Source: a virus (taxonomy: Duplodnaviria > Caudoviricetes). From it: a stretch of DNA of 54,905 nt. The notes beneath the pieces are model-generated. The model was not told where the DNA came from, did not search any database, and was given only the letters and a program-made list of their open reading frames with translations. Position 1 is the stretch's first letter. Each line of letters starts with the position of its first letter. Location of the stretch: the IMG/VR virus record IMGVR_UViG_3300035138_000057, positions 1 to 54,905 of that record; one strand, written 5' to 3'. Made by a program: the position numbers and the translations under genes. Positions 1,646-54,898 of the stretch are shown piece by piece.

Positions 1646-1648
1646 CGA

Positions 1649-30110: not shown

Positions 30111-30120
30111 GAGGTGAGAG

Positions 30121-30378: not shown

Positions 30379-30671
30379 AGCGGTTGGAGAGATCGGTGGA
30401 ACGACGCTTCGTGCAGCTGCTCGACGACCGCGGGCTCGAGCACGTTAAGTTCACGCCGTGGAGCCGGACAGGTCGGCCGGATCGCTTGGTGCTACTGCCT
30501 GGCGGTCGGCCGGTGTTCGTGGAGCTCAAGCGATCGGGCGAGGTTCCTCGTCCGTTACAGGATCATGTGATCAACGAACTGCGCCAGCTGGGTTACCCGG
30601 TGATCGTCGAGGACGACGCGGACCGCGCGTTTCTCCTGGTGCTGCAGCACGGAGGGTTAACGCGTGAGTGA
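30375..30671 (+). CDS. VRR-NUC domain nuclease (resolvase)
   Basis: GRPDRLVLLPGG..FVELKR..PRPLQ..LRQLG. Confidence 0.93.
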   Translation: MKRLERSVERRFVQLLDDRGLEHVKFTPWSRTGRPDRLVLLPGGRPVFVELKRSGEVPRPLQDHVINELRQLGYPVIVEDDADRAFLLVLQHGGLTRE

Positions 30672-32112
30672 CTTGCTCGAGGTGAGACCCGAGTCCTGGC
30701 AACCGTACGCGTACCACAAGCGCGCGGTGAAGTGGTTGGTCGAGCACCAGTATGGGTTGCTGCTGCTCGACCTCGGACTCGGGAAGACCGCGTGCACCCT
30801 TAAGGCATTTGACATTTTGCGCGAAGCGAAAGTGGTTCGCCGAGCGCTGGTGGTCGCTCCGCGCCGGCCGTGCTACGAGGTGTGGAGCGCGAAGGAGGGG
30901 GGTGAGCTCTGGCGGTGGACGGACTTCCACCACCTGCGCGTGGTCCTCCTGCATGGTCCGAAGAAGGATCGACGTCTCGAGGACGACGCGGACCTCTACG
31001 TGGTCAACTGGAGCGGGCTGCGGTGGCTCGACGAGAGCGGTGGTTTTCGATCGTTGCTGCGACGCGGGCTCGACCTGTTGGTGCTGGACGAAGGGAGCAA
31101 GATCAAGAACCTACGGACCGAGCGAGCGCGAGCGGTGAAGCCGCACCTGTCGCGATTCGCGCGGCGGTGGTTGCTGACGGGTACCCCCGAGTCGAACTCG
31201 CTGCTGGACGTCTTCGGGGAGACGTTCGCGGTGGATCTGGGGAAGACGTTCGGACCGTACATCACACACTTTCGTACTCAGTACTTCCAACCCTGTGGGT
31301 ACATGGGTAAACAATGGAAGCCTCATGAGGATACTGAAAAGAAGATCTTCAAGCGCCTGAAACCGATCTCCCTTTCGATGCGAGCGAAAGACCACCTCGA
31401 TCTCCCGTCGCTCGTCGAGCGAAACACCTGGATCGACCTGCCAGCTAAAGCTCGTAAGGCCTACGACGAGCTCGAGCGGGACCTGATCACGCAGCTGGAT
31501 GACGGGACGCTGACCGCGGCGAACGCGGGGGTGGCTAGTATCAAGTGTCGGCAGGTAGCGAGCGGCGGGGTTTACCGGGAGAAGCTGATCCGAGTTAGGG
31601 GTGCGTCGAAGCGCGGCAGGGAGACCGTGCACCTGCACGACGCGAAGACCGAGGCGCTGGTTGACATCGTAGACGAGCTGCAGGGGTCGCCGTTGCTGGT
31701 GCTCTTCGAGTTCGGTCACGACCTCGAGCGCATCCGGAAGGCGCTGGGGCGGAGCACGCCATCGCTCGACGGGAGGACGTCGGACAAGGAGGCCTCGCGG
31801 TTGATCGTGAGGTGGAACGCTGGGAAGCTCCGGGTACTTTGCGGTCACCCGGCGTCGATGGGCCACGGGTTGAACCTGCAGCGCAGCGGGCATCACGTGT
31901 GTTGTTACTCGATAGGGTGGAACTTAGAGTTGTATTCTCAGGCGATCAAGCGAGTCCACCGACTAGGGCAGAAAAAGCGAGTGATCGTCCACCGGTTGCT
32001 CGCGCGGGACACGGTGGACGAGGCGATTGCTACGGCGCTGCAGCGCAAGCACAGTGCGCAGGAACGCTTACTCGACGCGCTGCGGGGCTACCTGCGTCGG
32101 CGAAAAATTTGA
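30664..32112 (+). CDS. SNF2-like SF2 helicase
   Basis: DLGLGKT, VLDEGS, LTGTP, HPASMGHGLNLQ, QAIKRVHRLGQ. Confidence 0.95.
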   Translation: MSDLLEVRPESWQPYAYHKRAVKWLVEHQYGLLLLDLGLGKTACTLKAFDILREAKVVRRALVVAPRRPCYEVWSAKEGGELWRWTDFHHLRVVLLHGPKKDRRLEDDADLYVVNWSGLRWLDESGGFRSLLRRGLDLLVLDEGSKIKNLRTERARAVKPHLSRFARRWLLTGTPESNSLLDVFGETFAVDLGKTFGPYITHFRTQYFQPCGYMGKQWKPHEDTEKKIFKRLKPISLSMRAKDHLDLPSLVERNTWIDLPAKARKAYDELERDLITQLDDGTLTAANAGVASIKCRQVASGGVYREKLIRVRGASKRGRETVHLHDAKTEALVDIVDELQGSPLLVLFEFGHDLERIRKALGRSTPSLDGRTSDKEASRLIVRWNAGKLRVLCGHPASMGHGLNLQRSGHHVCCYSIGWNLELYSQAIKRVHRLGQKKRVIVHRLLARDTVDEAIATALQRKHSAQERLLDALRGYLRRRKI

Positions 32113-34858: not shown

Positions 34859-35050
34859 ATGCGTGCGATCGAGGGATCACGAGCTGGACGACCGGTAGCG
34901 CGGGACGACCTCCTCGAGGAGGAGCGCCGGCGCTACCGCGAGGCGAGCACCCCGTCAGACGCACAGCTCGCGTACCGTAGCTTGCTCCGGTCGGCTGCGC
35001 GGAGCTGCCTGGTGCTCAAGGCGATCGAGCAGCGCAGGGGTGTTAAGTGA
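34859..35050 (+). CDS. Hypothetical protein
   Basis: Coupled ORF. Confidence 0.5.
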   Translation: MRAIEGSRAGRPVARDDLLEEERRRYREASTPSDAQLAYRSLLRSAARSCLVLKAIEQRRGVK

Positions 35051-35424
35051 GAATGGACATCACCAGCGATGACCTCGATCTCGCCGCGAGGCGGTTGTGC
35101 CTCCAGCACCTGTTAGGCAACCACGGGGAGTTACACAAGCACCGGCACGTCTTCGTCAGGCAACACTCGATCACCGGCAGGTTGGGTCAGATCGAACCGC
35201 TAGCGATGCAAACGTGGCACGATGCGCTCGCGCGGGAGCTGCTCCGGCGTGGTTACCGGCACGAGAGCCCGTACACGCTGCCTCCGCTGGATTACCTGCC
35301 GTTGAAAGATCGCTTGGGTCGAGTTGACCGGGAGACAGCGTTGGAGAACCTTACCAGGAGGTGCGCAGCGTGCCGCGAGCGGATCTTCCGGCTGAACGCG
35401 TGGCTGCTTGGTTGGAGGAAGTAA
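35047..35424 (+). CDS. Pyrimidine-dimer DNA glycosylase / endonuclease V-like protein
   Basis: MRM..LCLQHLLGNHGELH, HDALARELLRRGYRHESP, C-terminal CAAC. Confidence 0.8.
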   Translation: MRMDITSDDLDLAARRLCLQHLLGNHGELHKHRHVFVRQHSITGRLGQIEPLAMQTWHDALARELLRRGYRHESPYTLPPLDYLPLKDRLGRVDRETALENLTRRCAACRERIFRLNAWLLGWRK

Positions 35425-42599: not shown

Positions 42600-42837
42600 G
42601 CTCTGGCTAGTGCTCTCCTACCTCGCGATGTTCGGAGTGGGTGTGGTCCTCGGAATCGGTCTCGCGCAGCGCTACCGTATCCTGTGGTGGTTCGTGACAT
42701 CTCGCGCTGACGACTACGCTCCGGCGTGCCTTGAAACTCCGATCGGCTTTAGTCGTCACGCGACCACGCGAGATGATTCCCAGCCAGCCCGTGAGGCAGG
42801 TAGCGCCAGGCGATCGCCATGCGATCGGCGCCCGTGA
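42586..42837 (+). CDS. Small membrane protein
   Basis: N-terminal TM helix; 3' end overlaps the convergent gene. Confidence 0.5.
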   Translation: MPVIELWLVLSYLAMFGVGVVLGIGLAQRYRILWWFVTSRADDYAPACLETPIGFSRHATTRDDSQPAREAGSARRSPCDRRP

Positions 42838-44047
42838 AACCCCTCCCGTAATGCCAGGCGTCGGTGCTGGCCAGGCTCGGGTTACGACGTAAGGTGATCG
42901 CGTGCTCGTTGGAGAGTACGCGCGAGAGCTCGAACTCCTCGCGGTGGTGCTTGTGCCCCGTGTGGATCTCGCAGTACGTCGAGCTGCTGATGTGCTCGCG
43001 CGCTTCGCTGAACAGGTTCCCAATAGCTTTGTTGGGTTGGATCAGGTGCCCGTGCGCGAAGCCTAGCAGCACCTGCTCCCAGAGAAAGTATTTTCGCGGG
43101 ATGGCACGGATGTCGAAGGTGATCCCTGGGGTCTCACGATAGTGGGCCTCGAGCACCTGGCAGAGCCACCAGGACGAGGTCTCATCGTGGTTGCCTGGAA
43201 TGAGCACCACACGCACATCGTTGCAGATCCGTCGAAGGCGATCGATGATGTGCTTCTGAATGAGAATGCCAGCCTTCCAAACCTTGGCTGAGCGGGTATC
43301 TTTATCCAACAGAAATCCATCGGTGGGAGTCTCCCCTCGGCTGTTGTCCATGTGGTAGAAGTCGTTACCAACCACGTAGAAAACAGTTTGCACGTTGTAC
43401 AAAGATAGGTTAGCTACCAGGTCATCCGTAGCGTTGAACAACCGCTTAGTGGCGATCTTCGTGTCGTAGTCGTCACCGGTTTCCTCGTGCCACGCGAAGT
43501 TACCTAGGTGCGCGTCCCAGAAACCGAAGACACCCATCTGAGGGGGTCCGCGCTTCGGTACGGTGACCGGGGGCAACTGCTTGTTGAGCAGCCCAACGGC
43601 GTTTGCTTCTAAGAACTCCTGCACCGCCTCAGCGAAACCCACCGGCAATCTACGTCGAAGCGTTAACGAAGAATGCCAGACCTTCGTGTGCGTAGTGCGG
43701 TCCTTCGATCTGTAAAAGGAGCTCCACACCTTGAACTTCTCCGTCTCCCAGATCGTGGTATCAACCTGCGCCAGGTCGAGCACCTCGGGCTCGCTGTACG
43801 GTCGATCCACGCTACCTGCAGTGATCTCGTCCCCATGATGAGACACAGCTAGCAGAGCGTCGTCGAGCTCAGGTGGATCCGGGTAGGCAGTATCAGTCTT
43901 CTTGATACCTCGATTGCTCGCGTATCTCTGAACGGTCTCGTGGTGACACCCCAAATGACGAGCAACGGATCGAAACGAGTGGCCGGCCTCGAGCAGCTGC
44001 TTGATCTTTTGTTGTTCGTTGGTCGTGAATTCCTTGGCTTTACTCAC
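42749..44047 (-). CDS. HTH plus calcineurin-like metallophosphoesterase
   Basis: SFRSVARHLGCHHETV HTH; DAHLG, GNDFYH, PGNHD, AHGH, TGHKH; GTG start overlapping the upstream TAG. Confidence 0.88.
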   Translation of the reverse strand: MSKAKEFTTNEQQKIKQLLEAGHSFRSVARHLGCHHETVQRYASNRGIKKTDTAYPDPPELDDALLAVSHHGDEITAGSVDRPYSEPEVLDLAQVDTTIWETEKFKVWSSFYRSKDRTTHTKVWHSSLTLRRRLPVGFAEAVQEFLEANAVGLLNKQLPPVTVPKRGPPQMGVFGFWDAHLGNFAWHEETGDDYDTKIATKRLFNATDDLVANLSLYNVQTVFYVVGNDFYHMDNSRGETPTDGFLLDKDTRSAKVWKAGILIQKHIIDRLRRICNDVRVVLIPGNHDETSSWWLCQVLEAHYRETPGITFDIRAIPRKYFLWEQVLLGFAHGHLIQPNKAIGNLFSEAREHISSSTYCEIHTGHKHHREEFELSRVLSNEHAITLRRNPSLASTDAWHYGRGFTGADRMAIAWRYLPHGLAGNHLAWSRDD

Positions 44048-44595
44048 TAACGACCTCCATGCAGGATGGCGTAGGCTCCGGCGTAGAGGAGCGCACCCAT
44101 CACAGCGGAACCTATCACCAACACACCTACGAACCAATCTTGAAAGCTTCCCTGGTGCTCGCCCTTTCGTTCGCACAACCATCGAGCTTTGGCCGCCACC
44201 AGGTGGCGTTTTAACTCAGCATCGACTAGCGCTGGCACTTCGATCAATCGCAAATCATCTAGCTGCAACTGAAAGCGCCTGGGTAGGTCGAGAGCCAGCT
44301 CGAGAACGTGACTTTCGAAATCGCTTCGCTCGATCGACAACCACACCCCTTCACCGAGCTCGAAACCCATCGGTGTGGCGAAGCACACGGCATCCTGCGG
44401 CGTAGCATACAGCGGCGGGAGATCAGAGGGCCACGATGGGAGCTGCGGCGCTCGCCAGACGCTACGGGTCGCGTCGATCGGGATCCGGTCGTTTGGCTCG
44501 AGCAGCTGCGTCGAGCCGGCGGTGCAGGTCAACCAAACCATCATCGGGAACATGCTTCGTCTCCGCTTCGGTGTTTCTCGCTCGGGTTTGCTCAT
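44047..44595 (-). CDS. Spanin-like overlapping protein with C-terminal TM helix
   Basis: Starts inside the 44462 ORF; MMVWLTC, Pro-rich linker, coiled coil, C-terminal TM; start uncertain. Confidence 0.5.
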   Translation of the reverse strand: MSKPERETPKRRRSMFPMMVWLTCTAGSTQLLEPNDRIPIDATRSVWRAPQLPSWPSDLPPLYATPQDAVCFATPMGFELGEGVWLSIERSDFESHVLELALDLPRRFQLQLDDLRLIEVPALVDAELKRHLVAAKARWLCERKGEHQGSFQDWFVGVLVIGSAVMGALLYAGAYAILHGGR

Positions 44596-44791
44596 CCACC
44601 AGTTGCTGGGTGCGCGCCAGCTCGTCGCGGGACCGCTGGTCGACCTCGACCGCTGCGCGTTCGGCCTCCTCGAGCTCTCGTTGCTGGGCTCTTCGAGCTC
44701 GCAGCGCACGAGTGAGCAGCTGCCACCCGAACAGGACGACGGAAACGGCTCCGACCACGACTACCAAAAAGCGATTCCTTAACCAGCTCAC
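44462..44791 (-). CDS. Inner-membrane spanin (Rz-like) candidate
   Basis: N-terminal TM followed by a charged coiled coil; follows the holin-like gene. Confidence 0.6.
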   Translation of the reverse strand: MSWLRNRFLVVVVGAVSVVLFGWQLLTRALRARRAQQRELEEAERAAVEVDQRSRDELARTQQLVDEQTRARNTEAETKHVPDDGLVDLHRRLDAAARAKRPDPDRRDP

Positions 44792-45078
44792 TTCTGCGTA
44801 CCCTCTTTACCTGGGGTAGCGCGTCGCATAGCCTCGATCACCTTCGGGGCGTGCTCGAATGCGTTGCCGGCCGCGAGGATCCCTCCGAAGGTGGCTGCGA
44901 TCGTCGACGACCCGTCGATGAACTGCGCGGAGCTCATCTTTTCGGTGAACAGGAAAGCGTAGGAGAGCACTACCTCAGCCAGGAAGAAGGGTGGTACGAA
45001 AGCGGCGATCTTGCGTCGGCCAACCTTCGTAGCGATCTCCATCAGCCCTTCGACCAGAGTTAGCAGCTTAGCGATCAT
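44788..45078 (-). CDS. Holin-like membrane protein
   Basis: GRRK, two hydrophobic segments, AGNAFEH, basic C-terminus. Confidence 0.65.
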   Translation of the reverse strand: MIAKLLTLVEGLMEIATKVGRRKIAAFVPPFFLAEVVLSYAFLFTEKMSSAQFIDGSSTIAATFGGILAAGNAFEHAPKVIEAMRRATPGKEGTQK

Positions 45079-45127: not shown

Positions 45128-45385
45128 CTACGGCGGAGCGTCAACCGGAGGTTCGTAGCGGGCCCCTGTCGCTTCGATCACAGCGCGGAGCATGCCCTTG
45201 ATGTCTTCCTGGCTGTTCTCGAGAACGGTCACCCGCGCATCGAGCTCATCGATCTCCTTCCGTGCCGACCACGGATCCGCAGCGTTGACTCTATCGCAAA
45301 GGGTAAAGCCGGCGATCGCTCCGCCGAGCAGCGACGCGGCGATCCCTATCGAGGTTACGTACCATTTTGTCCTGCGTGCTGCCAT
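45128..45385 (-). CDS. TM plus coiled-coil protein (lysis-cassette type)
   Basis: One TM helix, then LDARVTVLENSQEDIK. Confidence 0.6.
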   Translation of the reverse strand: MAARRTKWYVTSIGIAASLLGGAIAGFTLCDRVNAADPWSARKEIDELDARVTVLENSQEDIKGMLRAVIEATGARYEPPVDAPP

Positions 45386-45393: not shown

Positions 45394-45705
45394 CTACGGA
45401 ACGGTTACCTCGAATTGTCCAGGCGGATCGTAGGTCACGGTGAAGACAGTCTTGCCTGTGTCTGTGTTGCATGTCGCACTGACCACGGTCCGATCGATGC
45501 AGGGATCCATCATGGTTGCGCAGGTTCCCGGCGTTTTTCCATATTCAGTGTCGAAGTCACTGCAGGTAACGTTCTCGATTTTGGCCCAGAAGTCGATGAC
45601 CTGTTGGTTGCTGTTGTTCACAGTCTTGATGAATGTCTTCGGGACATTAGCCGCAATACTGCCAAGCAACAAACCAGAGATCAAAGCAATGATTTTCTCT
45701 GTCAT
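45394..45705 (-). CDS. Signal-peptide-bearing Cys-containing protein
   Basis: MTEKIIALISGLLLGSIAA; four Cys; strong RBS. Confidence 0.75.
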   Translation of the reverse strand: MTEKIIALISGLLLGSIAANVPKTFIKTVNNSNQQVIDFWAKIENVTCSDFDTEYGKTPGTCATMMDPCIDRTVVSATCNTDTGKTVFTVTYDPPGQFEVTVP

Positions 45706-45718
45706 GGTAATCCCTCCT

Positions 45719-46996
45719 TTATGGTGACCAGTAGCAAATAACTACTGTCGCTTCCCCAGCTGAAATCGTACTCCAGTCATTATCGACTGTGATAGTAACG
45801 GTTACGCTCTTCGCGGCGTCATGCCAAGCTGTACCTGACGGAACACCCAAATCGACGCCACCTGCATTAGTCGTGTAAACATCAGGAGTGCCTGTGCTAT
45901 ATCGGTCCGGATCAGTACCATCGCCTATTTGCACAGTCGCGGTCGAGTTAGCGCCACCTGCAAACCCTGTCAAGTCGTGCAAGATAGCACGCTGCGCAAC
46001 CGCACCACTCGGAATACCGTTATTCAGAACGAGCGTCCCGACAACACCGCCTCCGTCCACGAAGTCCGCGTAGGATATGGTTTGGTTGATGCAACCGAAA
46101 CCCCCACCGTCGCCGCCAAGAGCGAATCGATTACCGCTAACCAACAGGTTGGCCGGCCCATCCTCTTCGTCATAGATGGCGAGCTCTCCGTCGGTTGTGT
46201 TGCCATCCAGTTGAATGGCTTGGGATCTATCCCCAACGAAGAAGTCCTGATCCCCGTCATTCATAAACCAAATCTCGCCGGTTGTTGTTCTTATCGATAA
46301 CCCAGTGTATGCGGGCTCGTACTCCATGATGTAGTCAAGGCCGCTACCAAGATATACTTCCTCGTTATCCTTAATCCACAAGTGCCCTTCTATGACAACC
46401 CGCCCATCAAAACGGGTTTCCGCGTCCACCTCCATTTTGACGCCTGTGATGTGTACATCATTCGCACCCACGCTGAATCCGGAGGCCGCAGGCGGCCCAA
46501 ACGTCATTTTGGCGTCGGGGTTCGTCACTGACGATGCCCGTAGGACTATCACATTAGCACCAGCGTCCTTGTAGAATTCCAGCGGATCGCACGGCGATCC
46601 CTCGCAGTCTTTCTGGGTAAGCCGTAGTCCATCAGGAGTGCCGCCCGTATCGTGCTCGATGCAAAAGTCATCATCGTCGCCCAGGCACAACGGGATATCG
46701 TCGGGCACCTTGATGCCCGTGGATGTGATGTCTACTACGTCCGCACCACCTGCCACGCAGCGCCACGTGTCTGCTGCCGCGTGCCAGCAGTACGTGTTGG
46801 GATCAGCCCCGTAGTTTCCGTAGAACTTGTTACCAGCGAGATCGGCGTCAGCGACGAACGTTCCGTCGAAGTCCGGCACGGGTAGCGTATCCCCGATCGT
46901 ACCCTGTTGAGCTCGAGCTCCAGCTTCTCTTGACCACAAACCCACAACCGTGGCGATAACGATCGCCGTTACCCAAGTGATCAGCCAACGATTCAT
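45719..46996 (-). CDS. Signal-peptide-bearing tail-fibre-like beta protein
   Basis: MNRWLITWVTAIVIATVVGLWSREAGA; repeated DD.P/E..LG.D.D fibre-like segments; Cys pairs. Confidence 0.75.
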   Translation of the reverse strand: MNRWLITWVTAIVIATVVGLWSREAGARAQQGTIGDTLPVPDFDGTFVADADLAGNKFYGNYGADPNTYCWHAAADTWRCVAGGADVVDITSTGIKVPDDIPLCLGDDDDFCIEHDTGGTPDGLRLTQKDCEGSPCDPLEFYKDAGANVIVLRASSVTNPDAKMTFGPPAASGFSVGANDVHITGVKMEVDAETRFDGRVVIEGHLWIKDNEEVYLGSGLDYIMEYEPAYTGLSIRTTTGEIWFMNDGDQDFFVGDRSQAIQLDGNTTDGELAIYDEEDGPANLLVSGNRFALGGDGGGFGCINQTISYADFVDGGGVVGTLVLNNGIPSGAVAQRAILHDLTGFAGGANSTATVQIGDGTDPDRYSTGTPDVYTTNAGGVDLGVPSGTAWHDAAKSVTVTITVDNDWSTISAGEATVVICYWSP

Positions 46997-47454
46997 CGCT
47001 GCACTCCCGCTCGCATAGAGATGGACTTCACCAAGTCAGTTCCGTCCGGTGTGCCCAACGCGGCTACAGTACACTGAAAGTACTCCGCGCTGAGCCCGAC
47101 GAGCGACCACCGCAGTGCGCCCGATGCGCTCACCGGGATCCGCAACAGCTGGTTGCTCCCGTCGTAGGTGCCATCCGTCGAGGTTTCCTTGAACGACTGG
47201 TGCGTTCCGAGGGCCGAGGTTGACGGGCCGTCCGCGCAGCTCAACGTCACGTGGGTGACGTTACCGCTCCCGTGCTCGTAGTCCACCCAAACGGTTACCG
47301 TGTCCCAACCTCCGATAGCGATCGGATCGAAGGTCACCGCCGAGGTCAACGGCGCGTCGCTGATCAGCGTTCCGCTCGCCAGCGCTACGTAGTCCGCGTA
47401 AGGTTGCGGGCCCGGACCAGTTGCCAGGACCAACGCCAGTAGAACTGCTCTCAT
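46993..47454 (-). CDS. Signal-peptide-bearing beta-sandwich protein
   Basis: MRAVLLALVLA after AGGAGG RBS; two Cys. Confidence 0.75.
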   Translation of the reverse strand: MRAVLLALVLATGPGPQPYADYVALASGTLISDAPLTSAVTFDPIAIGGWDTVTVWVDYEHGSGNVTHVTLSCADGPSTSALGTHQSFKETSTDGTYDGSNQLLRIPVSASGALRWSLVGLSAEYFQCTVAALGTPDGTDLVKSISMRAGVQR

Positions 47455-47473: not shown

Positions 47474-50239
47474 TTAGAGTTGCACCTGCTGTCCCGCGAA
47501 GTCAATACCCACGGTCTGAGTGGTACCGAAGGCGTGCCTCAGGTAACCTCTGATCTTGTCTCCAGCTAAGAATCGTTGCGGCCCTGAGATGGCGTAAACT
47601 CTCGCGTAGACCGTTGCGCTGGCTGTTCCGTTAGCGATCACTAGGTCGGTCTCGGATCCACCCACCTGCTGGTACGTCAGCTTCGTCATGATCTCGTAAG
47701 CCGTGGCCGACGTGGGAAAGATACCGGCGAAGACGAACGAGTACAACCCATCACGAGGGACCACGTAATAGTCATTCGTCAGATCGAGGTTTCCGCCGTA
47801 GTCAAAACCGTTGTAGGGCGAAGCCGCCTCGATATCAGCTTGCACCCAGGTACCCGTTGCCACGGAGGTGCCAGAAGTGCTAACCCCTTGGAAGGCATCT
47901 AGCTGCCTGACGAGCTCAGCTCGGTCAACGTAGATGTTCGGTGAAACGGATCCCCCGCTGTACGTTCGGTAAACCAGCACTCTCCCGTAACGAGCTGTCG
48001 ACGGAGCCACTACCTGAATGTAGTTCTCCACGTCGTACCAAACGTCAGCTGTAACCGATCCGATGTCGTAGGTGCCGTAGAAACTGCTCAGGGGGGGCGC
48101 TGTTTTGTTGATGTCCTCAAACTCCACCATGACGTAGATCTGCGCGTCGCTGTCCACCGCATCAGAGAGGAACCTAGCCCGCACCTTATACAGATCTCCC
48201 TCGGTCACCGGGAACCACTCCGAAACCGCACCAACCGATGCGGTCGCGACGGCTCTGAAGTGCAGCGAACGACCTCCTGACAGCTGTACCGAGGTCGAGT
48301 AATAGATGTCAGCCGAAGCCCCGTACGACCCATAGTGCTCCGCCCAGCGATCGGGCATGTGCGTAGTGGGGTCCAACGTTTGAGCGTTGAAGTCCGGATT
48401 AAACGTTAGGGTAGCCTTCTCCGACTCGGGGTTCTCGTGGTAGGGGCCCACCAGTTGCGTAGCCACGAGTACTTGCGTACTCGTCGCTGCGACGTTCCCA
48501 GCCTCGTCGATGATGATCAGCTTCGCGTAGTACGTCTGCCCTGGAACGAGCCCTGCGACCTCGAACCGAGTCTGCCTACCCGAACCCTTGAGGTTCGCCG
48601 CCGACGGCGTGAACCCGCTCGAGGTAGCTACATGACACCGGGTGTAAGCCCAATCATCGATCGGCGGATCCATCGTCCGGGGATCGTCGTAAGTCACGAT
48701 GATCCCCATCAGGTTAGATTCGATAGCCACATTGCTCGCTGCTGCGTCCGCGTAGTGGTCCGCCTCCGGAGCGATGCCCGGCAGGGTCTCCAGCTCGAGC
48801 CACCTGCGCAGACCTCCGGACGGCTTCCCACGCACCTCGACCGTAGTCCGGCTAGCTTGTTTGTGGCTAACCGCGTGCACCACGCTGCTCACCGCGAGGT
48901 CCTGGTCCGAATCGAAGTACCGACTCGTCGCGAGCCACCGGTAGAGATCCCCAACCTCCGCCGGCCAGAACAGCGGAAGCACGAACCCCGCGAGCGCCGT
49001 AGGCTCCGCGAGATCCGATAGCGCGGCATCCCCTAACGCGTTCGCTTCGATCAGCGTGTCGATTAGCGAACTGCTGCTCTCTGCGATATCCATCGCGCGC
49101 AGCCCGTACTTGTCCTGCGACGACGTGTCGTTACGGGTAGTCGTGGTCCGGTCGTCCGCGGTTCCGTACGTTACCCGCACCCGGTTCCGGATATCGGCGA
49201 TCGATAAACCTACCTCCGAGAGGTCCGCGATGAAGTCATCGCTGAACTCCTCGTCCGGCGTGGTCTTGCTGCGGTCGGGTTCGTAGAACGTCAGCGCGAA
49301 GGCCGCGAGGTTCGAGTGCCACCGGTACCGCACCTGCCAACCGATCTGTCGCGCGATGTCCTCCTGCAGCGCAGTGAGGAGACGCCGCTTACCTTGTTTG
49401 AACGTCTTCACCAACCAGTCAGGACTGTCGTCCCACGTCCCCCCGTTACGGTAGAGCGGATCGGACAATGTGCCGTTGACAGCGTAGAGCGTCACCCGGC
49501 TCTCCCCCGCGATCCACACCGTGGCGCTCGAACCGGTCGGGATGGTTCTATTAGACGGATTCGAGATCGTGATACTCGTGTTAGGCACGATCGACGCGAT
49601 CTCGAATAAAGGTGCCTCGGTCAAGCCTACGTAGTCCCCCACGTCCACCTCCGACGTGTCCGACGTCGTAACGGTGGTAGTGCCGTTCCACGTGTACGTC
49701 GCGACCAGGGTCTCTAGGTCCTGGCTGTAGTCGTCGAGGAGGTCCTGCATCACGAGCTCAGCGCGTACCCCGGACGCCGTCCCGTACACCCGTTGGGTCT
49801 CCATCCAGGTATCGAGCAGCCGTCCGCCTTGGTCCCGGCCGCGGATCTCGATCGTCGCGCGGTTGATCTTGTAAGCGTCGATCGCTCCTCGGAACACCTC
49901 GTGCCAGTCCGTTGCCTGCGGCTGCACGTCCAGCGGCACCACCGCCATCTCGATCACTACCGGACGGTTCAACACGATCAGCGCTCCGCTAGCGTTGAGC
50001 TTCGAGGCATCGACGAACGGCGAGAGGTTGAGGAAGAACTGCGCCAGCTCGAGCGTTGCCTTGAACTGCACGCACGCCGCGTCGACGCCGTCCTGCACCC
50101 GCACCTCGTGCACCCAGTCGCGTCCCTCGAGGTCCGATAGGTTCACCCAAGTACCTGACCGCAACACCTTCACCCGTGCGTGCGCCGCTCGCTCCTGCTT
50201 GAGGAGCACAGCTAGCTCGTTGGCCGTTACGCTTCTCAC
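47474..50239 (-). CDS. Tail tip / baseplate hub protein with FN3 and carbohydrate-binding-like domains
   Basis: 921 aa after distal tail; SQDKYGLR, GFTPSAANL..GLVPGQTYY..DEAGN FN3; C-terminal C1q-like YVVPRDGLYSF. Confidence 0.85.
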   Translation of the reverse strand: MRSVTANELAVLLKQERAAHARVKVLRSGTWVNLSDLEGRDWVHEVRVQDGVDAACVQFKATLELAQFFLNLSPFVDASKLNASGALIVLNRPVVIEMAVVPLDVQPQATDWHEVFRGAIDAYKINRATIEIRGRDQGGRLLDTWMETQRVYGTASGVRAELVMQDLLDDYSQDLETLVATYTWNGTTTVTTSDTSEVDVGDYVGLTEAPLFEIASIVPNTSITISNPSNRTIPTGSSATVWIAGESRVTLYAVNGTLSDPLYRNGGTWDDSPDWLVKTFKQGKRRLLTALQEDIARQIGWQVRYRWHSNLAAFALTFYEPDRSKTTPDEEFSDDFIADLSEVGLSIADIRNRVRVTYGTADDRTTTTRNDTSSQDKYGLRAMDIAESSSSLIDTLIEANALGDAALSDLAEPTALAGFVLPLFWPAEVGDLYRWLATSRYFDSDQDLAVSSVVHAVSHKQASRTTVEVRGKPSGGLRRWLELETLPGIAPEADHYADAAASNVAIESNLMGIIVTYDDPRTMDPPIDDWAYTRCHVATSSGFTPSAANLKGSGRQTRFEVAGLVPGQTYYAKLIIIDEAGNVAATSTQVLVATQLVGPYHENPESEKATLTFNPDFNAQTLDPTTHMPDRWAEHYGSYGASADIYYSTSVQLSGGRSLHFRAVATASVGAVSEWFPVTEGDLYKVRARFLSDAVDSDAQIYVMVEFEDINKTAPPLSSFYGTYDIGSVTADVWYDVENYIQVVAPSTARYGRVLVYRTYSGGSVSPNIYVDRAELVRQLDAFQGVSTSGTSVATGTWVQADIEAASPYNGFDYGGNLDLTNDYYVVPRDGLYSFVFAGIFPTSATAYEIMTKLTYQQVGGSETDLVIANGTASATVYARVYAISGPQRFLAGDKIRGYLRHAFGTTQTVGIDFAGQQVQL

Positions 50240-51762
50240 CGCTCCTCCAGCTCGAACGAGAGCCGCTCGAGGTGCACTTGCCAGCTCCCGTCGGCCACCG
50301 CTTGCACGTAGGGACCCCCGGCTAGCTTCCCGATCGCTTCCACCGACAGATCGGTCTCACGGATCGCGTCCCCGTGCACCAGCACCCGCGGAAGCGCTGA
50401 CTGCGCGCGGCCGAACGCGTACCAGTTCGCGATCTGAGCAGCGCTCGCGGCGTAAGGTACGATCAACAGGTCGTCGATCAAACCACCGCTGAACTGTGCA
50501 CCCCCGTAGGTATTACCGATCTTTAAAAAACCAGCTGAAGCTATAGCTGGGATCCCTGCCGGATCGGAGTAATCAACTAGAATACTATCAACATACAACT
50601 CCTTGATGTGCTCAAGCGATGTCGGAGAAGTTCGTAAAACAGCGGTAATCATATGCCATTCCTCGTCATTCCAGATACCGGTATCACTTAACATATCCCA
50701 ATTACCAGCCGACGCATCAGTAGTAATAAAGGAAACATTATCAACTGATGCATCTCTAAATACTACAAAGCTATTAGCGCCGACGGTCGTACCGATGGCA
50801 AATACATACCTAATGTCAGTAGAATTATGATAGAGGCTCCTGGCCCAACAGCTGAAGGTTAGATCACGATAACCACTCAGAACCGATGAATCGTATTCCA
50901 ACACCCCCGCTGCCCGCGAACCGTCCACCCACGAGGTGGGTACTTCGCCTTCCTCGATCTGAAGCCCGTCGCAGTAAAACACGCTAATGGCGTTTCCTAC
51001 CTGCTCCTCGATCTCTAATCGGATGCTACGACAATCGCTTCCCCCGATCGTGATCGTGCAGACGAGCCAGTACCAGGTATCAGCGGTCATCGCTAGGGAG
51101 TACGTCCACGCTCCGGCTGCAGCGTTAGTCACGTCGTACAAACGAATCTTCACCAACTCGTTGTCCGACGGCGCCTTGACGTACACGCTCCCAGAATAGG
51201 TCTTCCCAGCGCTACCCGCACCCGGATCAACTGCAGTGGTATAAGCACCGTCAGTGGGAAAAGACCCGTTCGTGGTCACCTTGAGGGACTTAGTGCCCTG
51301 CCAGTAGTTGCTGGTATCGACGGCGAGCACCGCCGCGTTGATCGCGCTGTACCCCGTGGGGGCGTTCTCCGCATCTCTGGAGTCCGCCCCCAAGATGTTG
51401 GTAGTCGCACGTTCTACAGCCACCGCTCCGGTGTACTTGCTCTCGAGGTACACCGGGGCTCCGTCCGCCGCGGTCCCGCTGCGCAGCGTTCGCACCGCAC
51501 CGCTCTCTGCCGGAAGCCCTTTACCGCTGTAGTCGTCAACGTCGAACGGCCAGCTGTGACCGAGCCCCTGCACGATCGCCTTTACGGCGGTAGCTTCCCC
51601 CCGTAACAACGGAGTGGTCTCCACCTTCCACACACGCTTCTGCGTCAAGCGGTCCACCAAGGGCGTCCCAACCAATCCGTACGCCCGCGAACCGACTTCG
51701 CGCACGCTTTCCTCGAAGCTCGCCACGCTGATCGGCCGGCCGTTGAGCTCTAGAAAACTCAC
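50236..51762 (-). CDS. Distal tail protein with inserted CBM-like and LamG domains
   Basis: MSFLELNG..KRVWKVET; YCDGLQIEEG; WHMITAV..LYVDS..IDDLLI. Confidence 0.8.
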   Translation of the reverse strand: MSFLELNGRPISVASFEESVREVGSRAYGLVGTPLVDRLTQKRVWKVETTPLLRGEATAVKAIVQGLGHSWPFDVDDYSGKGLPAESGAVRTLRSGTAADGAPVYLESKYTGAVAVERATTNILGADSRDAENAPTGYSAINAAVLAVDTSNYWQGTKSLKVTTNGSFPTDGAYTTAVDPGAGSAGKTYSGSVYVKAPSDNELVKIRLYDVTNAAAGAWTYSLAMTADTWYWLVCTITIGGSDCRSIRLEIEEQVGNAISVFYCDGLQIEEGEVPTSWVDGSRAAGVLEYDSSVLSGYRDLTFSCWARSLYHNSTDIRYVFAIGTTVGANSFVVFRDASVDNVSFITTDASAGNWDMLSDTGIWNDEEWHMITAVLRTSPTSLEHIKELYVDSILVDYSDPAGIPAIASAGFLKIGNTYGGAQFSGGLIDDLLIVPYAASAAQIANWYAFGRAQSALPRVLVHGDAIRETDLSVEAIGKLAGGPYVQAVADGSWQVHLERLSFELEER

Positions 51763-54611
51763 TTTGATACGCTCCGTGGTGCTCCTATCACCGTTGTACC
51801 CCGTTCCCCGAAGTTCCGATTGCGCGCCGCTGCCGCCAATCGGTCCGCCGCCTCCTCAGGATCACTGACCTGCACGATGATCGTAGCACCCTCAAAGGGT
51901 GCCGAACCCCCACCTGCGCCAGCCACCGCCGCGGGCACCACGTCCTCACCGACAATCGCTCCGAAGCGAGCCGAAGCTACCTTGAAGACGTCGGGTACGT
52001 TGCCCAACGAGGCGTTGACCTCCTTCACGGTGGAGTTCAGGTCACCCATCGACGACGTGCTCTCGTCCACCGCCTCGGTGTTATCCTCGACTGAGCTCGT
52101 CGCCTCATCGTAGGCGGACGACGTGTCGTACATGTTTATCTTTGATCTCCGCAGAGCACGTGCTGCTCCGCCAGAGAAGATACCCACTATCTTGGCAACG
52201 ATCTCGATCAAGGTGTTCCAGATCTTGGCCACCACCGACATGATCGCATGAAGAATCTTCCCCACCACCATCAGCACACGACCTACCAAATCAATTATTG
52301 GAATCAACAGCTTGAGAATTGAAAACAGACCTAACAACGGCGTCAGGATGTTACCCAAAGCGGCGATCACCGGGCCGAGCGCGTTGAAGAAAGGCTCAAG
52401 CACCTTCACCAAAACACCAAAGATCCTCGCCCCGACCTTCAGAAGTGTCTTGAAAGCTTTTGACTCCTTGAACAACGACGTAAAAGCTGCGGCTGCAGCA
52501 CCCCAGACACCACCCTTAGTAAAACCTTCCACGGTACTCGTGATCAGTTCCCCGGCGCTCCCAAGCGAGTCCACCACCGAGTTAACCATACCCCCTGCAG
52601 CGCCCATAACTTTCGCAGGGCCTTCCCCCCTCGCCTCACCTTCGGACACAGCTGCTTTGAGCTCGAGGTCCGCCGACGCTTGCCTGAATGCATCAGCCAT
52701 CGCAGCGCTTAACTCTGAAACCATCATACCACGATCTACCTTGCCACCAGGAGCACCAGGCACCGTTGCCATCGCAGGTGCAGTAGCTGCAGCGAGCTGC
52801 GCAGGCATGTCGAAGGCATCCTGCATCAATTCGTCGAAAGTGGCGGTAAACAAACTCTTGATCGTCGCGAAACCGTCCTTGAACGAATCCACGAAGAACC
52901 CACCAATGGTTTTCGCCCCCTCAGCCAGGTCGTCGACGTAGTACCCAAACACCTCACCCGCATCGCTGAAAGCATCACCCAGAACCTTGCCTATATCCTT
53001 CGCCTTGTCCTTCACGTCGTCGAACAACTCATCGGCGGTCGTAGGCAGCTGGATGTCGATCTTCCCCATGGTGATCTTCTCGATCGCGGTGGTCACCCAA
53101 CCCAGACCCTTCAAGGCCATGTTGACCATTTCCTTAACCACGATCACCACCCACTTCTTTACGAAGACAAAGGCTTCGTAGATCTTCTGCGCAATTGTCT
53201 TCGTCGTATCCACGAAGCTCATCACGATCGTTCTAATATAACCGAAGTCAGCTTTCCACGCCTTTTTCAGCAACCCAACATAGAGGATCACTCCAGCGAT
53301 GGCTCCTACCACCACCCCAATTGCCACGACAACAGGCCAGAACGCAGCAGTGATAGCTGCGCCAACACCTGTAGCCACGGTGCCCAGAAAAGCGAAGCCG
53401 GTAGCTAACCCTGGGATCGCCAGCCCCACTAAAGCCAGCACCGCGGTCAGCCCAGCTACCGCAGCCGTCACCCCTCCTAAGATCACAGCCGCGACCTTCC
53501 ACCCCTTGCCTAGATCTTGAAACCAACCGATCGCCGCGCGGGCCCATTCGTTCAGCTTCCGCGCTGCGGGCATGAGGATCTCCCCGATCTCGATCGCGAG
53601 TCGTTCCACCTGGCTCCCCAGGATCAGCATCTGCCCTGAGAACGTTTTCATCTCCGCCTCGGCGATCCGCTTCGCAATGCCACCTGAGTCCTCGAGCTTG
53701 GTGATCAACTGATCCAAGGCGTCCGAACCCATACCGATCAACGCAGCCATACCGGGACCAGCGCGCAGCCCGAAGATCTGCATGATGGCTCCGGTGTTCG
53801 CCGCGTGTGGTTCGAGACGTTTGATGATCTCAGTCATGCCGAGCAGCTTGCCGCTCGAGTCCGTGAGCTTCACCCCGAGCGAGGCCAGCGCGTCCCGAAC
53901 CTCGGCCGAGGGGTTGAGCAGCCGCGCGAACGCGCCTCGCAACGTAGTACCAGCCATGCTTCCTTGGATACCTGCGTTACCCAGCAACGCGATCGAAGCC
54001 GCGGTGTCCTCAAAACTTATCCCGGCGCTCTTTGCCACCGGACCGACGTACTTGAAAGCCGACCCCAGCTGCGCGACGTCAACGTTCGCGCTGGTGATCG
54101 CCTTTACCATTACGTCAACGCTCCCTCCCAACTGCTCCGTGCTCTGCCCGAACCCCGCCATGATGTTCGTAACGATGTCCGCCGCGGAGCCCAGGTCGAT
54201 CGCTCCGGCCGCAGCGAGATCCAATACGTGCGGCATTCCCCCCACGATTTGATTGGTCTTCATACCAGCCATCGCCATGAACTGCATACCCTGCGACACC
54301 TGCACCGCAGTGTACTTCGTCCCCGACGCGAGGTCGAGTGCACTCTGTCGCAGACGTCCGAACTCCTGCGTCGTAGCCTGCGACACCGCGCGCACGCGAG
54401 TCATCCCCGCCTCGAACTGCGACGCGGTTCGTAGAGCCTTAACCCCCACAGCTGTCAACGCACCACTTAGGACCCCGGCTCCGACGGCAACCTTGGTGAG
54501 CTGACCTTTCATTGCGTCCAGCTGAGCTACGGATCCCTTCATCGACGTAGCGAACTGCGCAGCGTCCGCCCGCAGCTTAACTACTAAGGTGCCTAGAACC
54601 GTAGCCCCCAC
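51759..54611 (-). CDS. Tape measure protein (TP901 family)
   Basis: FEAGMTRVRAVS, TKYTAVQV, VLDLAAAG, KYVGPVA, GIQGSMAGTTLR; 950 aa. Confidence 0.96.
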   Translation of the reverse strand: MGATVLGTLVVKLRADAAQFATSMKGSVAQLDAMKGQLTKVAVGAGVLSGALTAVGVKALRTASQFEAGMTRVRAVSQATTQEFGRLRQSALDLASGTKYTAVQVSQGMQFMAMAGMKTNQIVGGMPHVLDLAAAGAIDLGSAADIVTNIMAGFGQSTEQLGGSVDVMVKAITSANVDVAQLGSAFKYVGPVAKSAGISFEDTAASIALLGNAGIQGSMAGTTLRGAFARLLNPSAEVRDALASLGVKLTDSSGKLLGMTEIIKRLEPHAANTGAIMQIFGLRAGPGMAALIGMGSDALDQLITKLEDSGGIAKRIAEAEMKTFSGQMLILGSQVERLAIEIGEILMPAARKLNEWARAAIGWFQDLGKGWKVAAVILGGVTAAVAGLTAVLALVGLAIPGLATGFAFLGTVATGVGAAITAAFWPVVVAIGVVVGAIAGVILYVGLLKKAWKADFGYIRTIVMSFVDTTKTIAQKIYEAFVFVKKWVVIVVKEMVNMALKGLGWVTTAIEKITMGKIDIQLPTTADELFDDVKDKAKDIGKVLGDAFSDAGEVFGYYVDDLAEGAKTIGGFFVDSFKDGFATIKSLFTATFDELMQDAFDMPAQLAAATAPAMATVPGAPGGKVDRGMMVSELSAAMADAFRQASADLELKAAVSEGEARGEGPAKVMGAAGGMVNSVVDSLGSAGELITSTVEGFTKGGVWGAAAAAFTSLFKESKAFKTLLKVGARIFGVLVKVLEPFFNALGPVIAALGNILTPLLGLFSILKLLIPIIDLVGRVLMVVGKILHAIMSVVAKIWNTLIEIVAKIVGIFSGGAARALRRSKINMYDTSSAYDEATSSVEDNTEAVDESTSSMGDLNSTVKEVNASLGNVPDVFKVASARFGAIVGEDVVPAAVAGAGGGSAPFEGATIIVQVSDPEEAADRLAAAARNRNFGERGTTVIGAPRSVSK

Positions 54612-54898
54612 TACCTACCTCGCTCCCGCTTTTGCTGAAAGTACTCCGTGATCTCCTGCCTAGTCATTTCATGTGAGAAGCTCTTACAACCCATGAGGCG
54701 GTTGACGGTGATCCTGGGACCCTTCGCCCCCAGGCAACCCCGCATGTAATTCATGAGGTTGGCCTGCAGCTCGCATAACCACAACCGCTGGCGGTGCAAA
54801 CCACGGTTGAAAGCTCTTACCACGAGCTGCACCTCGACAGGAGTCAGGTCCCAGATCTCGTCGATGCTTAGACCTGCCTCGAGCCCCAGCAAGGTCAA
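54611..54898 (-). CDS. Tail assembly chaperone extension (gpT-like)
   Basis: IWDLTPVE motif; lies between TAC and tape measure across the junction. Confidence 0.8.
   Translation of the reverse strand: MTLLGLEAGLSIDEIWDLTPVEVQLVVRAFNRGLHRQRLWLCELQANLMNYMRGCLGAKGPRITVNRLMGCKSFSHEMTRQEITEYFQQKRERGR

Follow-up and report, generated by a model that had tools for sequence, protein, structure and literature searches.

Genes at the locus

The window (the whole stretch of DNA analysed, 54,905 nucleotides of the viral record IMGVR_UViG_3300035138_000057) is that of a tailed phage, with genes for an HK97-type head, portal, terminase and tape measure; a search for an integrase in the window rendered none. 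The three open reading frames that a preliminary description of this DNA had placed at 45394-47454 were found there, on the minus strand, and are here called gpA, gpB and gpC. These genes and others relevant to their interpretation are the following:

47474-50239, minus strand: 921-aa protein, at the tail-tip position as judged by its place behind the tape measure and behind a LamG protein of 508 aa
46993-47454, minus strand: gpA, 153 aa, jelly-roll beta-sandwich behind a short, signal-like N-terminus
45719-46996, minus strand: gpB, 425 aa, four-part, fibre-like protein
45394-45705, minus strand: gpC, 103 aa, predicted signal (1-19) followed by an 84-aa part with four conserved Cys
45128-45385, minus strand: gpD, 85 aa, with a basic N-terminus, a single hydrophobic segment and a predicted coiled-coil-like tail
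44788-45075, minus strand: gpE, 95 aa, holin-like small membrane protein, as judged by position and hydrophobic segment
44462-44791, minus strand: gpF, 109 aa, N-terminal membrane segment and charged helical tail, i-spanin-like
44047-44553, minus strand: 168-aa protein of spanin-like architecture, read in another frame from a start within gpF
18069-18758, plus strand: Amidase_3 endolysin candidate (Pfam PF01520), away from the lysis cassette

The gpA gene starts at an ATG at 47454, located 5 nt past AGGAGGAGG and 20 nt past the stop of the gene for the 921-aa protein, for which no Pfam, PHROG or PDB sequence match was found. The ATG of gpB (46996) overlaps the gpA stop (ATGA), the two genes being hence coupled, and the ATG of gpC (45705) is preceded by AAGGAGGG. 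In the DNA of all three genes, good ribosome sites and starts lie upstream of the hydrophobic segments described below, so that the possibility of true starts downstream of these segments, checked on the DNA, was not borne out.

The description of the trio as three consecutive signal proteins holds for the trio itself, but the run is longer, since gpD, gpE, gpF and the 168-aa protein also have membrane segments; the seven genes thus form a run of putative exported or membrane proteins that reaches into the lysis genes. According to a heuristic scan, an N-terminal hydrophobic run is present in 8 of the 79 ORFs of the window, five of them located in the block from gpA to the 168-aa protein. If such ORFs were placed at random, three in a row would be expected with P of ca. 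0.05, and at least five in seven with P of ca. 0.002. The trio lies between tail and lysis genes, and what had been described as the tail-fibre position is also where the lysis cassette begins. In this block, promoter-like and terminator-like sites are about as frequent as in shuffled sequence (3 vs 2.3, and 5 vs 3.8, respectively), and the trio is therefore probably transcribed along with the tail and lysis genes.

Signal-like N-termini

Signal calls are based on a heuristic scan for a basic n-region, a hydrophobic h-region of ca. 7-20 residues, and small residues at -3/-1. Uncharged hydrophobic runs, each with a basic residue before it, span residues 3-13 of gpA, 4-22 of gpB and 5-19 of gpC, and small-residue -3/-1 sites are found at 27 and 29 in gpB, at 18 and 19 in gpC, and only at 11 in gpA. 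The gpA signal of the window is short, with an 11-residue run and a single -3/-1 site, and the 19-residue run of gpB is long for a cleaved signal. The hydrophobic segments of the three proteins do not end in a lipobox Cys. A pilin-type (class III) signal was rejected, because no N-terminus examined has the Gly-hydrophobic-Glu5 motif.

The Sec-like signals noticed on the three ORFs were thus recovered by the scan as hydrophobic, signal-like N-termini, and they recur in the respective families. By the same heuristic, an N-terminal signal is present in 19 of 20 gpA sequences and in 9 of 10 gpC sequences, while the 22 sequences of the gpB family comprise 13 with a clear signal, two with a short one, two that are full-length and lack it, and five that are fragments or unclear. 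Loss of the signals among homologues, which would have spoken against export, was therefore not what this comparison rendered. In all three families the signal is retained in kind while its sequence diverges; among gpB relatives, at least four unrelated signal sequences were found, each ending in small residues at -3/-1.

Codon comparisons point in the same direction. Between the window and its relative L002, codons 1-19 of gpC, which correspond to the signal, differ by 10 synonymous and one non-synonymous changes, which implies that they are translated; the mature part (85 codons) differs by 24 synonymous and five non-synonymous changes. In a gpB signal of another type, the comparison of L002 with L007 rendered five synonymous and two non-synonymous differences in 26 codons. 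This codon pattern indicates that the signal codons are under purifying selection.

Mosaic structure of gpB

The gpB protein consists of a signal or N-terminal helix (1-29) followed by a linker, a conserved Cys/Asp-rich domain (ca. 95-175), a hypervariable cassette of 120 aa (ca. 176-295) and a C-terminal jelly roll (ca. 296-425). Its AF2 model has a mean pLDDT of 58.2, with values of 55-81 for the end domain and of ca. 80 for residues 2-30, which are modelled as a long helix. A family of 22 homologues was found, and identity per segment is 66-88% in the N-domain and 60-85% in the end domain, but 16-33% in the middle (95% in one relative), so that gpB has the variable middle between conserved flanks, that is, the mosaic specificity-type cassette, of fibres and receptor-binding proteins. 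Exchange of this part can be seen at the DNA level: over the gpB middle and end domains, the GC-poor locus L006 (GC 0.346) and the GC-rich locus L008 have 665 nt in common, with 78% identity, in spite of a gap of 20 points in GC content. In L006 this unit is joined to a signal-less N-terminus and, as read from that N-terminus, the protein would be a virion fibre; it has no PHROG match.

The end domain (295-425) superposes on the cement proteins of cyanophage Pam1 (7eel_H, Z 9.0), Helicobacter phage KHP40 (7dou_4, Z 8.6) and Ralstonia phage GP4 (8h89_J, Z 8.5) over 109-122 residues with rmsd 3.0-3.5, a moderate similarity for a domain of that pLDDT. It is also 41-52% identical to stand-alone proteins of 134-197 aa encoded in five loci (tblastn E 1e-20 to 1e-30), in four of which the major head protein is at most two genes away; 23 short homologues of the end domain were found. 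In the window, where the major head protein is encoded at 4403-5659, gpB lies 40 kb from the head genes, and the cement-like domain forms the final third of this signal-bearing protein of 425 aa; no relation to the end domain was detected in the small proteins encoded after the window's own capsid gene.

No N-terminal domain for docking to a tail or baseplate was found in gpB, in which the signal is followed by an N-domain common to three tail types, and gpB has no tail-fibre PHROG or Pfam match. Against PDB sequences, the best match of the gpB profile was 26de_W ("Structural protein", E 0.36), and the N-domain matched nothing. That gpB could be a missing endolysin was ruled out, because the window has the Amidase_3 gene at 18069-18758 and relatives carry both gpB and an amidase.

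gpA, gpC and searches for relatives

In the gpA family (20 sequences), M1, C73 and C128 are invariant. The AF2 model of gpA (pLDDT 90.9) consists entirely of strands, and its fold matches are generic jelly rolls, namely BcsB (Z 9.4), XepA (9.1), EphA2 (9.0) and Pgp3 (9.0). The trio had been described as beta-rich, and this applies to gpA and to the C-terminal domain of gpB, but the model of the rest of gpB is weak. No relation between gpA and the gpB end domain appeared in a profile comparison, and no Pfam, PHROG, NCBIfam or PADLOC match was found for gpA. Against PDB sequences, the gpA profile matched 8fk7_A ("Flagellin", E 4.5e-4, 23 bits), which we read as a weak match of beta-strand patterns. 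Single-protein scans for the loci of distant gpA relatives found nothing in viral or metagenome contigs. A 2012-aa candidate (P0031) proved spurious, with no stretch of it passing in Pfam and an hhalign probability of 0.2, and was left out of the family alignment. The L002-type protein encoded upstream of gpB is a true gpA relative (hhalign probability 96.5%); the secreted protein found at that place in L003, L005 and L008 is a positional equivalent only (16%).

The gpC family comprises 10 sequences. The place of gpC is always directly downstream of gpB, which it follows in 8 of 10 related loci; in L006, a gpC-like protein could be assigned only weakly (E 1e-4 over 32 residues). Against PDB sequences, the best match of the gpC profile has an E of 0.078.

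No named relative of gpA, gpB or gpC was found in Pfam, PHROGs, NCBIfam, PADLOC, PDB sequences or GenBank phages. Among GenBank phages there was no DNA match to the window, tblastn searches with gpB, gpA and the 921-aa protein found nothing, and the module has no cultured relative. The portal has only distant matches there, to phages of many different hosts, so that the host could not be inferred from them. A search of the ESM Atlas rendered nothing for gpC and otherwise only unnamed viral clusters, plus a lead (0.84) to an Mtd_N cluster. A literature search, mostly at the level of titles and abstracts and hence a weak negative, rendered no report of signal-bearing fibre-like proteins of tailed phages.

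Cysteines and the presence of a signal

The spaced Cys pairs noticed earlier in the trio (YCW..WRC, LCL..FCI and DCEGSPC) correspond to C70/C80, C104/C112 and C131/C136 of gpB, and two more cysteines, C302 and C421, are present in this protein; gpC has four and gpA two. In 14 aligned gpB rows, positions 104, 112, 131, 136, 302 and 421 are all Cys. The gpB copies that lack a clear signal (P0017, P0018, P0019, P0020 and P0022) have Cys at none or one of those six positions, the single signal-less gpC-like copy has none of the four, and there are 0-1 Cys in the stand-alone proteins related to the gpB end domain. The conserved cysteines are therefore restricted to signal-bearing copies. Signals kept in kind, purifying selection on their codons and this link with the cysteines give comparative support to the proposal that the trio is exported and oxidatively folded; on these sequence grounds, both export and disulfide formation appear likely.

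Inheritance with lysis genes

In 10 related loci, tblastn detected gpC in eight, gpD in five (with up to 89% identity), the spanin-like 168-aa protein in eight, three of them weak, and a cassette amidase in three, while the 921-aa and 508-aa tail proteins of the window were found in none. What lies upstream of the module in these loci are myovirus baseplate and tail-fibre genes or a podovirus-like block, so that the module adjoins unrelated tail genes of sipho-, myo- and podo-type. This distribution indicates that the module is inherited with the lysis genes and not with the tails. Of the two features to be checked in homologues, the signals are kept in kind, and the synteny found is with lysis genes, not with tail genes. 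An adsorption module in the sense of a virion part, as had been suggested, is not supported: the module is associated with three unrelated tail types and is co-inherited with lysis genes, and gpB lacks a tail-specific attachment domain.

In relatives, gpD adjoins the endolysin gene, directly upstream of it; the protein has a conserved Cys after its hydrophobic segment, but with Leu at -1. In L003, L005 and L011, an amidase gene is located between those of gpD and the spanin-like protein, and these amidases are 40-46% identical to the Amidase_3 candidate of the window (PF01520 E 1.4e-8, 35.4 bits, cut-off 27). For gpE, one weak homologue was found, in L011. The gpF protein matches PHROG 1026 ("Rz-like spanin", E 5.2e-4), and the 168-aa protein, which has a membrane segment near its C-terminus and a short hydrophobic stretch (Cys10) at its N-terminus, would be a candidate spanin by its architecture; its lipobox-like Cys recurs in three of six relatives, and its leader has just nine residues. 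The PHROG spanin match, the spanin-like gene pair and the small single-domain amidases weakly indicate a diderm host, which is presupposed, and thus equally weakly indicated, wherever the periplasm is named here as a location.

Possible functions of the module

Our preferred reading, which is tentative and which we place somewhat short of probable, is that gpA, gpB and gpC constitute an exported, disulfide-bonded, non-virion accessory module that acts on a ligand of the envelope, excluding other phages or sparing the progeny. The three proteins would be made late and exported via Sec, their type I signal-like N-termini being cleaved or serving as anchors, and disulfides would stabilise them outside the cytoplasm, apart from the cytoplasmically assembled virion. 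gpB, probably trimeric and fibre-like, would carry a ligand-binding unit, made up of the hypervariable cassette and the conserved jelly-roll end, such as those on phage fibres; gpC would be obligately associated with gpB, and gpA would be secreted as a small jelly-roll protein. Grouped functionally with the envelope and lysis genes, the module would occupy or alter the ligand on the host envelope from within, or at lysis. Such masking would exclude other phages and stop the progeny from sticking to debris, following the logic of T5 Llp with a fibre-derived binder. We infer the trimeric state, the contacts among gpA, gpB and gpC, and the function from the features described above. Between the two roles that had been put forward for the trio, joining virions at lysis or acting as a receptor decoy or blocker, the latter fits better. 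On the other hand, a periplasmic protein would need a further step to reach ligands exposed on the exterior of the cell, and both the homology of the gpB end domain to capsid cement proteins and the location of the trio at the expected fibre position in the podovirus-like genome G001 are compatible with a virion role.

It could also be the case, although we regard it as unlikely, that the exported trio helps egress, aiding envelope breakdown and virion release together with the holin, amidase and spanins, for which XepA of PBSX would be the model. The module adjoins gpD, the amidase and the spanin-like genes and is inherited along with them, and gpA superposes on the N-terminal beta-sandwich of XepA (Z 9.1, rmsd 2.9, 103 residues aligned) and on YomS (Z 7.5). 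However, many unrelated jelly rolls score as well as XepA (Z 9.4 to 7.5 over 50 rows), and the gpA profile has no XepA sequence match. Moreover, a hypervariable cassette that is exchanged with a signal-less fibre-like protein points to ligand specificity, and the usual kinds of lysis genes are already present in the window. A reading without export, in which the N-termini are oligomerisation or membrane-insertion helices of cytoplasmic virion proteins of the ejection or pilot type and the cysteines oxidise after release, would agree with the long helix predicted for the gpB N-terminus and with the length of its hydrophobic run. It appears very improbable in view of the textbook n/h/c signals with -3/-1 sites in 19 of 20 gpA relatives, the four unrelated types of gpB signal that all end in such sites, the recurrence of the feature in three to five consecutive proteins, and the coincidence of signal loss with Cys loss.

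Distinctly unlikely, in our opinion, is that the trio represents virion fibres matured outside the cytoplasm, which would join tails, or capsids via the cement-like end, at lysis. The trio occupies the tail-fibre position in three genome types, and G001 has no other recognised fibre; the gpB end domain has cement-protein homologues, encoded beside major-head genes in four of five loci, and cement-protein fold matches of Z 8.5-9.0; and the middle and end domains of gpB are also found on the signal-less L006 protein. However, no attachment domain of gpB changes with the type of tail, one and the same N-domain being found with three unrelated tails, and tail fibres recognised by PHROGs are already encoded immediately upstream of the module in the myovirus-type loci. 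The absence of a recognised fibre in G001 says little, because PHROGs recognises almost nothing in that genome. We know of no precedent for post-lysis assembly of tailed-phage parts, and the specific version in which a receptor-binding fibre and its partners are exported via Sec, folded with disulfides in the periplasm and loaded on the finished tail or capsid at lysis is, in our estimation, quite improbable.

Should the preferred reading of ligand masking be true, phages would reuse their own adsorption hardware as a secreted competitor; this would be a new way of achieving superinfection exclusion, and viromes could be mined for what would be a new class of ligand binders. If the trio joined virions instead, it would be an exception to the wholly cytoplasmic assembly of tailed-phage particles, and loading after lysis would add an extracytoplasmic step to that assembly. 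Either way, three unannotated protein families gain a testable context, and the link between signal and cysteines provides a simple computational marker for finding further modules of this type.

Comparison with known phage proteins

Export is unusual for a fibre-like phage protein. Known exported accessory proteins of phages include receptor blockers, periplasmic antiholins and XepA, none of which, to our knowledge, is a mosaic fibre-like protein built of virion-type domains. Among the receptor blockers are the phage-encoded Cor proteins of T1/phi80-type phages. T5 Llp is reported to be a lipoprotein that resides in the outer membrane, in its inner leaflet, and binds FhuA (bioRxiv 10.64898/2026.03.26.714494). 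Similarly to what is proposed for the trio, Llp and Cor are exported, are encoded near adsorption genes, and act on the receptor from the periplasmic side, excluding further phage. However, they are small lipoproteins, whereas gpA, gpB and gpC lack a lipobox Cys; Llp is made early, whereas the module lies in a late tail-lysis block; and these systems have nothing like the 425-aa mosaic fibre and no sequence relation to the trio.

XepA reportedly also figures in a study of non-classical (signal-independent) secretion. The available part of the XepA report describes it as exported in the course of phage development, absent from PBSX particles, encoded between tail and lysis genes and devoid of a transmembrane domain, with no mention there of a signal peptide (PMC6834076). 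XepA and YomS, lytic-cassette proteins of the Bacillus prophages PBSX and SPbeta, resemble the trio, as far as that text goes, in their tail-lysis position and beta-sandwich domains (PMC6834076), but they belong to a Gram-positive host, XepA is a pentameric dumbbell, and there is no sequence match to gpA, whose superposition on XepA residues 34-141 (Z 9.1) is no better than that on unrelated jelly rolls.

Other signal-bearing phage proteins differ further from the trio. In contrast to it, filamentous-phage pIII, an adsorption protein that bears a Sec signal and folds, with its disulfides, in the periplasm, belongs to a phage that assembles at the membrane, while the window is that of a tailed phage. 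Lambda Lom/Bor-type morons also bear signals and are located directly after the tail tip gene, but they are prophage-expressed outer-membrane proteins or lipoproteins with their own promoters, whereas in the window no integrase was found, promoter-like and terminator-like sites are at shuffled levels, and the folds are different. T4 RI and Sp are small signal-exported periplasmic proteins that act on lysis timing or on superinfecting phage. The signal of RI is cleavable, as cited in PMC13577005. Neither RI nor Sp has a fibre-like component or any relation in sequence or architecture to the trio. Finally, the cement proteins that share the jelly roll of the gpB end domain stand alone, whereas in gpB a signal, a Cys-rich domain and a variable cassette precede this domain in a single protein; the gpB domain has the Cys pair 302/421, which the stand-alone cement-like forms lack, and it is encoded far from the head genes.

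Gene order and conserved signals

A preliminary description had placed three consecutive signal-bearing proteins at the tail-fibre position. The trio (gpA, gpB and gpC) is indeed present, downstream of the genes for the tape measure, a 508-aa protein and a 921-aa protein, but envelope proteins continue beyond the three that had been described, with gpD, gpE, gpF and a 168-aa protein as further members of the run:

46993-47454, minus strand: gpA
45719-46996, minus strand: gpB
45394-45705, minus strand: gpC
45128-45385, minus strand: gpD, 85 aa, a single hydrophobic segment followed by a helical tail
next toward the lysis end: gpE, 95 aa, holin-like
44047-44791, minus strand: overlapped pair of gpF (109 aa; match to PHROG 'Rz-like spanin', E 5.2e-4) and the 168-aa protein with a C-terminal membrane segment, which is read in a different frame from a start at 44553, within the gpF gene, to a point beyond the end of that gene

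Inspection of the DNA found a strong ribosome site for each trio ATG ahead of the hydrophobic segment. The start of gpB (ATG, 46996) and the stop of gpA overlap in ATGA, with GGAG 7 nt ahead of the start, and the next gaps downstream are of 13 and 8 nt. Neither promoter-like sites (3 found, 2.3 expected from shuffled sequence) nor terminator-like sites (5 and 3.8, respectively) are enriched, and the tail genes through the lysis genes look like one late transcript. By a simple heuristic, 8 of the 79 ORFs have an N-terminal hydrophobic run, the tape measure being a false positive among them, and five of these 8 lie in the trio-lysis block; under random placement, P is about 0.05 for a row of three and about 0.002 for five or more in seven. 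The 168-aa protein has a 9-residue hydrophobic start ending in a Cys; as only 3 of 6 relatives retain this Cys, the spanin assignment of the pair is uncertain. A Cys, with Leu at -1, directly follows the hydrophobic segment in all three aligned copies of gpD (compared: the window and the related loci L003, L008 and L011); this is not a canonical lipobox.

Codon differences bear on whether the hydrophobic segments are translated. Between the gpC genes of the window and locus L002 (94% protein identity), codons 1-19 show 10 synonymous differences and 1 non-synonymous, and the other 85 codons 24 and 5, respectively; a second type of gpB signal shows 5 synonymous and 2 non-synonymous differences in 26 codons between L002 and L007. 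True starts downstream of the hydrophobic segments are thereby rejected, and the source gene call for gpB (386 aa, from a GTG at codon 40, skipping the signal) is therefore probably too short. The expectation that homologues keep the signals was borne out in kind. An exhaustive HMMER search with gpA rendered 17 proteins, P0031 being dropped as spurious. Of the 20 sequences aligned, 19 have a basic start that leads into a hydrophobic run with -3/-1 sites; P0035, the exception, begins downstream of this part. Invariance across the alignment is limited to M1 and two cysteines. The signal is kept in 9 of 10 gpC relatives. The 22 gpB rows include 13 with a clear signal, 2 with a short hydrophobic start, 2 full-length proteins without one, and 5 fragments or unclear cases, and the clear signals belong to at least four unrelated sequence types, every one ending in small residues at -3/-1. 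The evidence says that the signals of gpA, gpB and gpC are coding and conserved, from which we infer that the three proteins would be exported.

Cysteines and predicted folds

Positions 104, 112, 131, 136, 302 and 421 of gpB are all Cys in 14 rows; five homologues without a clear signal (P0017, P0018, P0019, P0020 and P0022) have Cys at only 0-1 of these six positions, the sole gpC-like protein without a signal has 0 of 4 cysteines, and the stand-alone proteins related to the gpB end domain contain 0-1 Cys. Head and tail proteins of the window are also Cys-poor (major head protein, 0; tape measure, 0; 921-aa protein, 2). Judging from these alignments, cysteines follow the signal in the gpB and gpC families.

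A jelly-roll sandwich behind a disordered N-terminus is predicted for gpA (pLDDT 90.9, pTM 0.82). Its top structural matches are generic (BcsB 9.4, XepA 9.1, EphA2 9.0, Pgp3 9.0 and carbohydrate-binding modules), and a domain of lambda gpJ is among the further Foldseek matches, as are numerous small phage proteins without a name. The profile of the gpA family alignment weakly matches a 144-aa PDB chain labelled 'Flagellin' (8fk7_A, E 4.5e-4) over the hydrophobic start and first strands, which we read as chance or a common strand pattern.

The monomer model of gpB is poor (mean pLDDT 58.2), with an N-terminal helix (2-30) and a better defined end domain (295-425). The latter resembles capsid cement proteins of cyanophage Pam1 (Z 9.0), Helicobacter phage KHP40 (8.6) and Ralstonia phage GP4 (8.5), as well as a baseplate-complex chain of siphophage R4C (7.4). 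In agreement with the cement-protein matches, it is 41-52% identical to stand-alone proteins of 134-197 aa at five genome-contig loci, in four of which the gene lies no more than two genes from the major head gene; a further 23 short homologues were found. Among gpB relatives identity is 66-88% in the Cys/Asp-rich N-domain (95-175), 16-33% in the middle (176-295; 95% in one relative) and 60-85% in the end domain, the pattern of a specificity cassette that can be exchanged while its flanks are conserved.

An exception is found in L006, a 162-kb contig of GC 0.346, where the 410-aa protein P0017 carries gpB-type middle and end domains behind a different, signal-less N-terminus, and is followed by a weakly matching gpC-like ORF with neither signal nor cysteines. 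P0017 has no PHROG match; from its N-terminus we read it as a fibre. L006:6085-6747 and L008:6508-7170 share 78% DNA identity over 665 nt, and local GC in L006 climbs to 0.416 at this stretch (L008 GC, 0.561), which indicates a fairly recent exchange of a fibre cassette between two very different phage genomes. The binding unit would thus function on exported gpB as well as on a protein that is cytoplasmic and presumably virion-borne.

Distribution of the module

A gpB scan of viral contigs rendered 10 loci, with gpC downstream in 8, gpD in 5, a spanin-like protein in 8 (three weakly), and an Amidase_3 40-46% identical to the window's own in 3. The 921-aa and 508-aa tail proteins of the window have a match in none of the 10, and the genes upstream vary: baseplate wedge proteins and PHROG-recognised tail fibres in L003, L005, L008/L010 and L009, and in the 44-kb genomes with terminal repeats L002, L004 and L007 a block without tape measure that resembles podovirus internal-core genes. 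A textbook signal is likewise present in the 148-164-aa protein encoded directly upstream of gpB in 7 of the 10 loci. Comparison by hhalign makes the L002-type version a genuine relative of gpA (96.5%, E 7.7e-10); the L003-type (16%) corresponds to gpA in position only. Differing upstream genes together with kept lysis neighbours imply that the module moves among phages of three tail architectures and accompanies lysis genes. It carries no tail-specific adaptor. The module is present in a 43.7-kb terminal-repeat genome, G001 (L019-L021), nearly all of whose structural proteins, including a 1032-aa one (28126-31224, minus strand), have no PHROG match; G001 is an unannotated podovirus-like lineage.

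Possible role of the trio

The simplest account would be that gpA, gpB and gpC are exported, disulfide-bonded and act on the envelope, gpB supplying a fibre-type ligand binder and gpC being its putative partner. A secreted copy of the binder could then compete for the same host ligand as the signal-less protein of another phage in a common gene pool. Since the binding unit also serves such a protein, this suggests receptor masking or superinfection exclusion, which may include keeping progeny off debris, with the logic known from T5 Llp. To act on a ligand of the outer surface, a periplasmic protein would need a further step. The N-termini are unlikely to be non-exported hydrophobic helices, given the signals across the gpA family and the link of signal with cysteines.

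Alternatively, the trio could consist of fibres that attach to tails or capsids when the cell lyses, a reading favoured by the cement-like end domain of gpB and by the location of the trio in G001, where it is fibre-like; however, there is no tail-specific adaptor at all, and myovirus-type loci already have ordinary fibres. The trio might also help egress in the manner of PBSX XepA, a protein described as exported, absent from particles and encoded between tail and lysis genes (PMC6834076). Named relatives of gpA, gpB or gpC were not found in Pfam, PHROGs, NCBIfam, PADLOC, PDB or GenBank phages, nor signal-bearing fibre-like proteins of tailed phages in the literature covered (listings and a few passages). 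The trio would belong with exported phage accessory proteins, a kind already known, with a minority chance of something more radical.

Genome layout

The window, an entire IMG/VR virus record of 54,905 bp, was rated complete by CheckV, has about 60% GC, and is shown to be a tailed phage by PHROG and Pfam scans. No integrase was seen in it; the DNA search gave no match and thus no close GenBank phage, and the portal has only distant matches among GenBank phages, scattered over hosts. A plus-strand replication block follows the first minus-strand block:

229-11212, minus strand: terminase, portal, protease/scaffold, HK97-type major head protein, connectors and major tail protein (PHROG and Pfam scans)
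17369-18058 and 28926-29402, plus strand: two genes for HNH endonucleases, one of them immediately downstream of the DNA polymerase gene
21065-21715: radical-SAM protein
35047-35424: pyrimidine-dimer glycosylase
42749-44182, minus strand: 477-aa HTH and metallophosphatase-type exonuclease (PHROG 704, 4.8e-65)
54898-44047, minus strand: second block, opening with the tape measure (PF10145, 1.2e-45) and the 508-aa LamG protein

Both minus-strand blocks join across the record ends, which split the tail operon (major tail protein at 596-1015; chaperone-like ORF and tape measure at 51759-54898, all on the minus strand); despite being classed 'linear', the window therefore represents a permuted genome or one closed into a circle. 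The one endolysin recognisable in it, an Amidase_3 (18069-18758, plus strand, E 1.4e-8), is encoded within the replication block, at a distance of 26 kb from the genes for the holin-like and spanin-like proteins. In L003, L005 and L011 the lysis cassette itself contains the homologous gene, placed between those for gpD and the spanin-like protein. The exonuclease gene directly follows the lysis genes and points towards the end of the plus-strand block.
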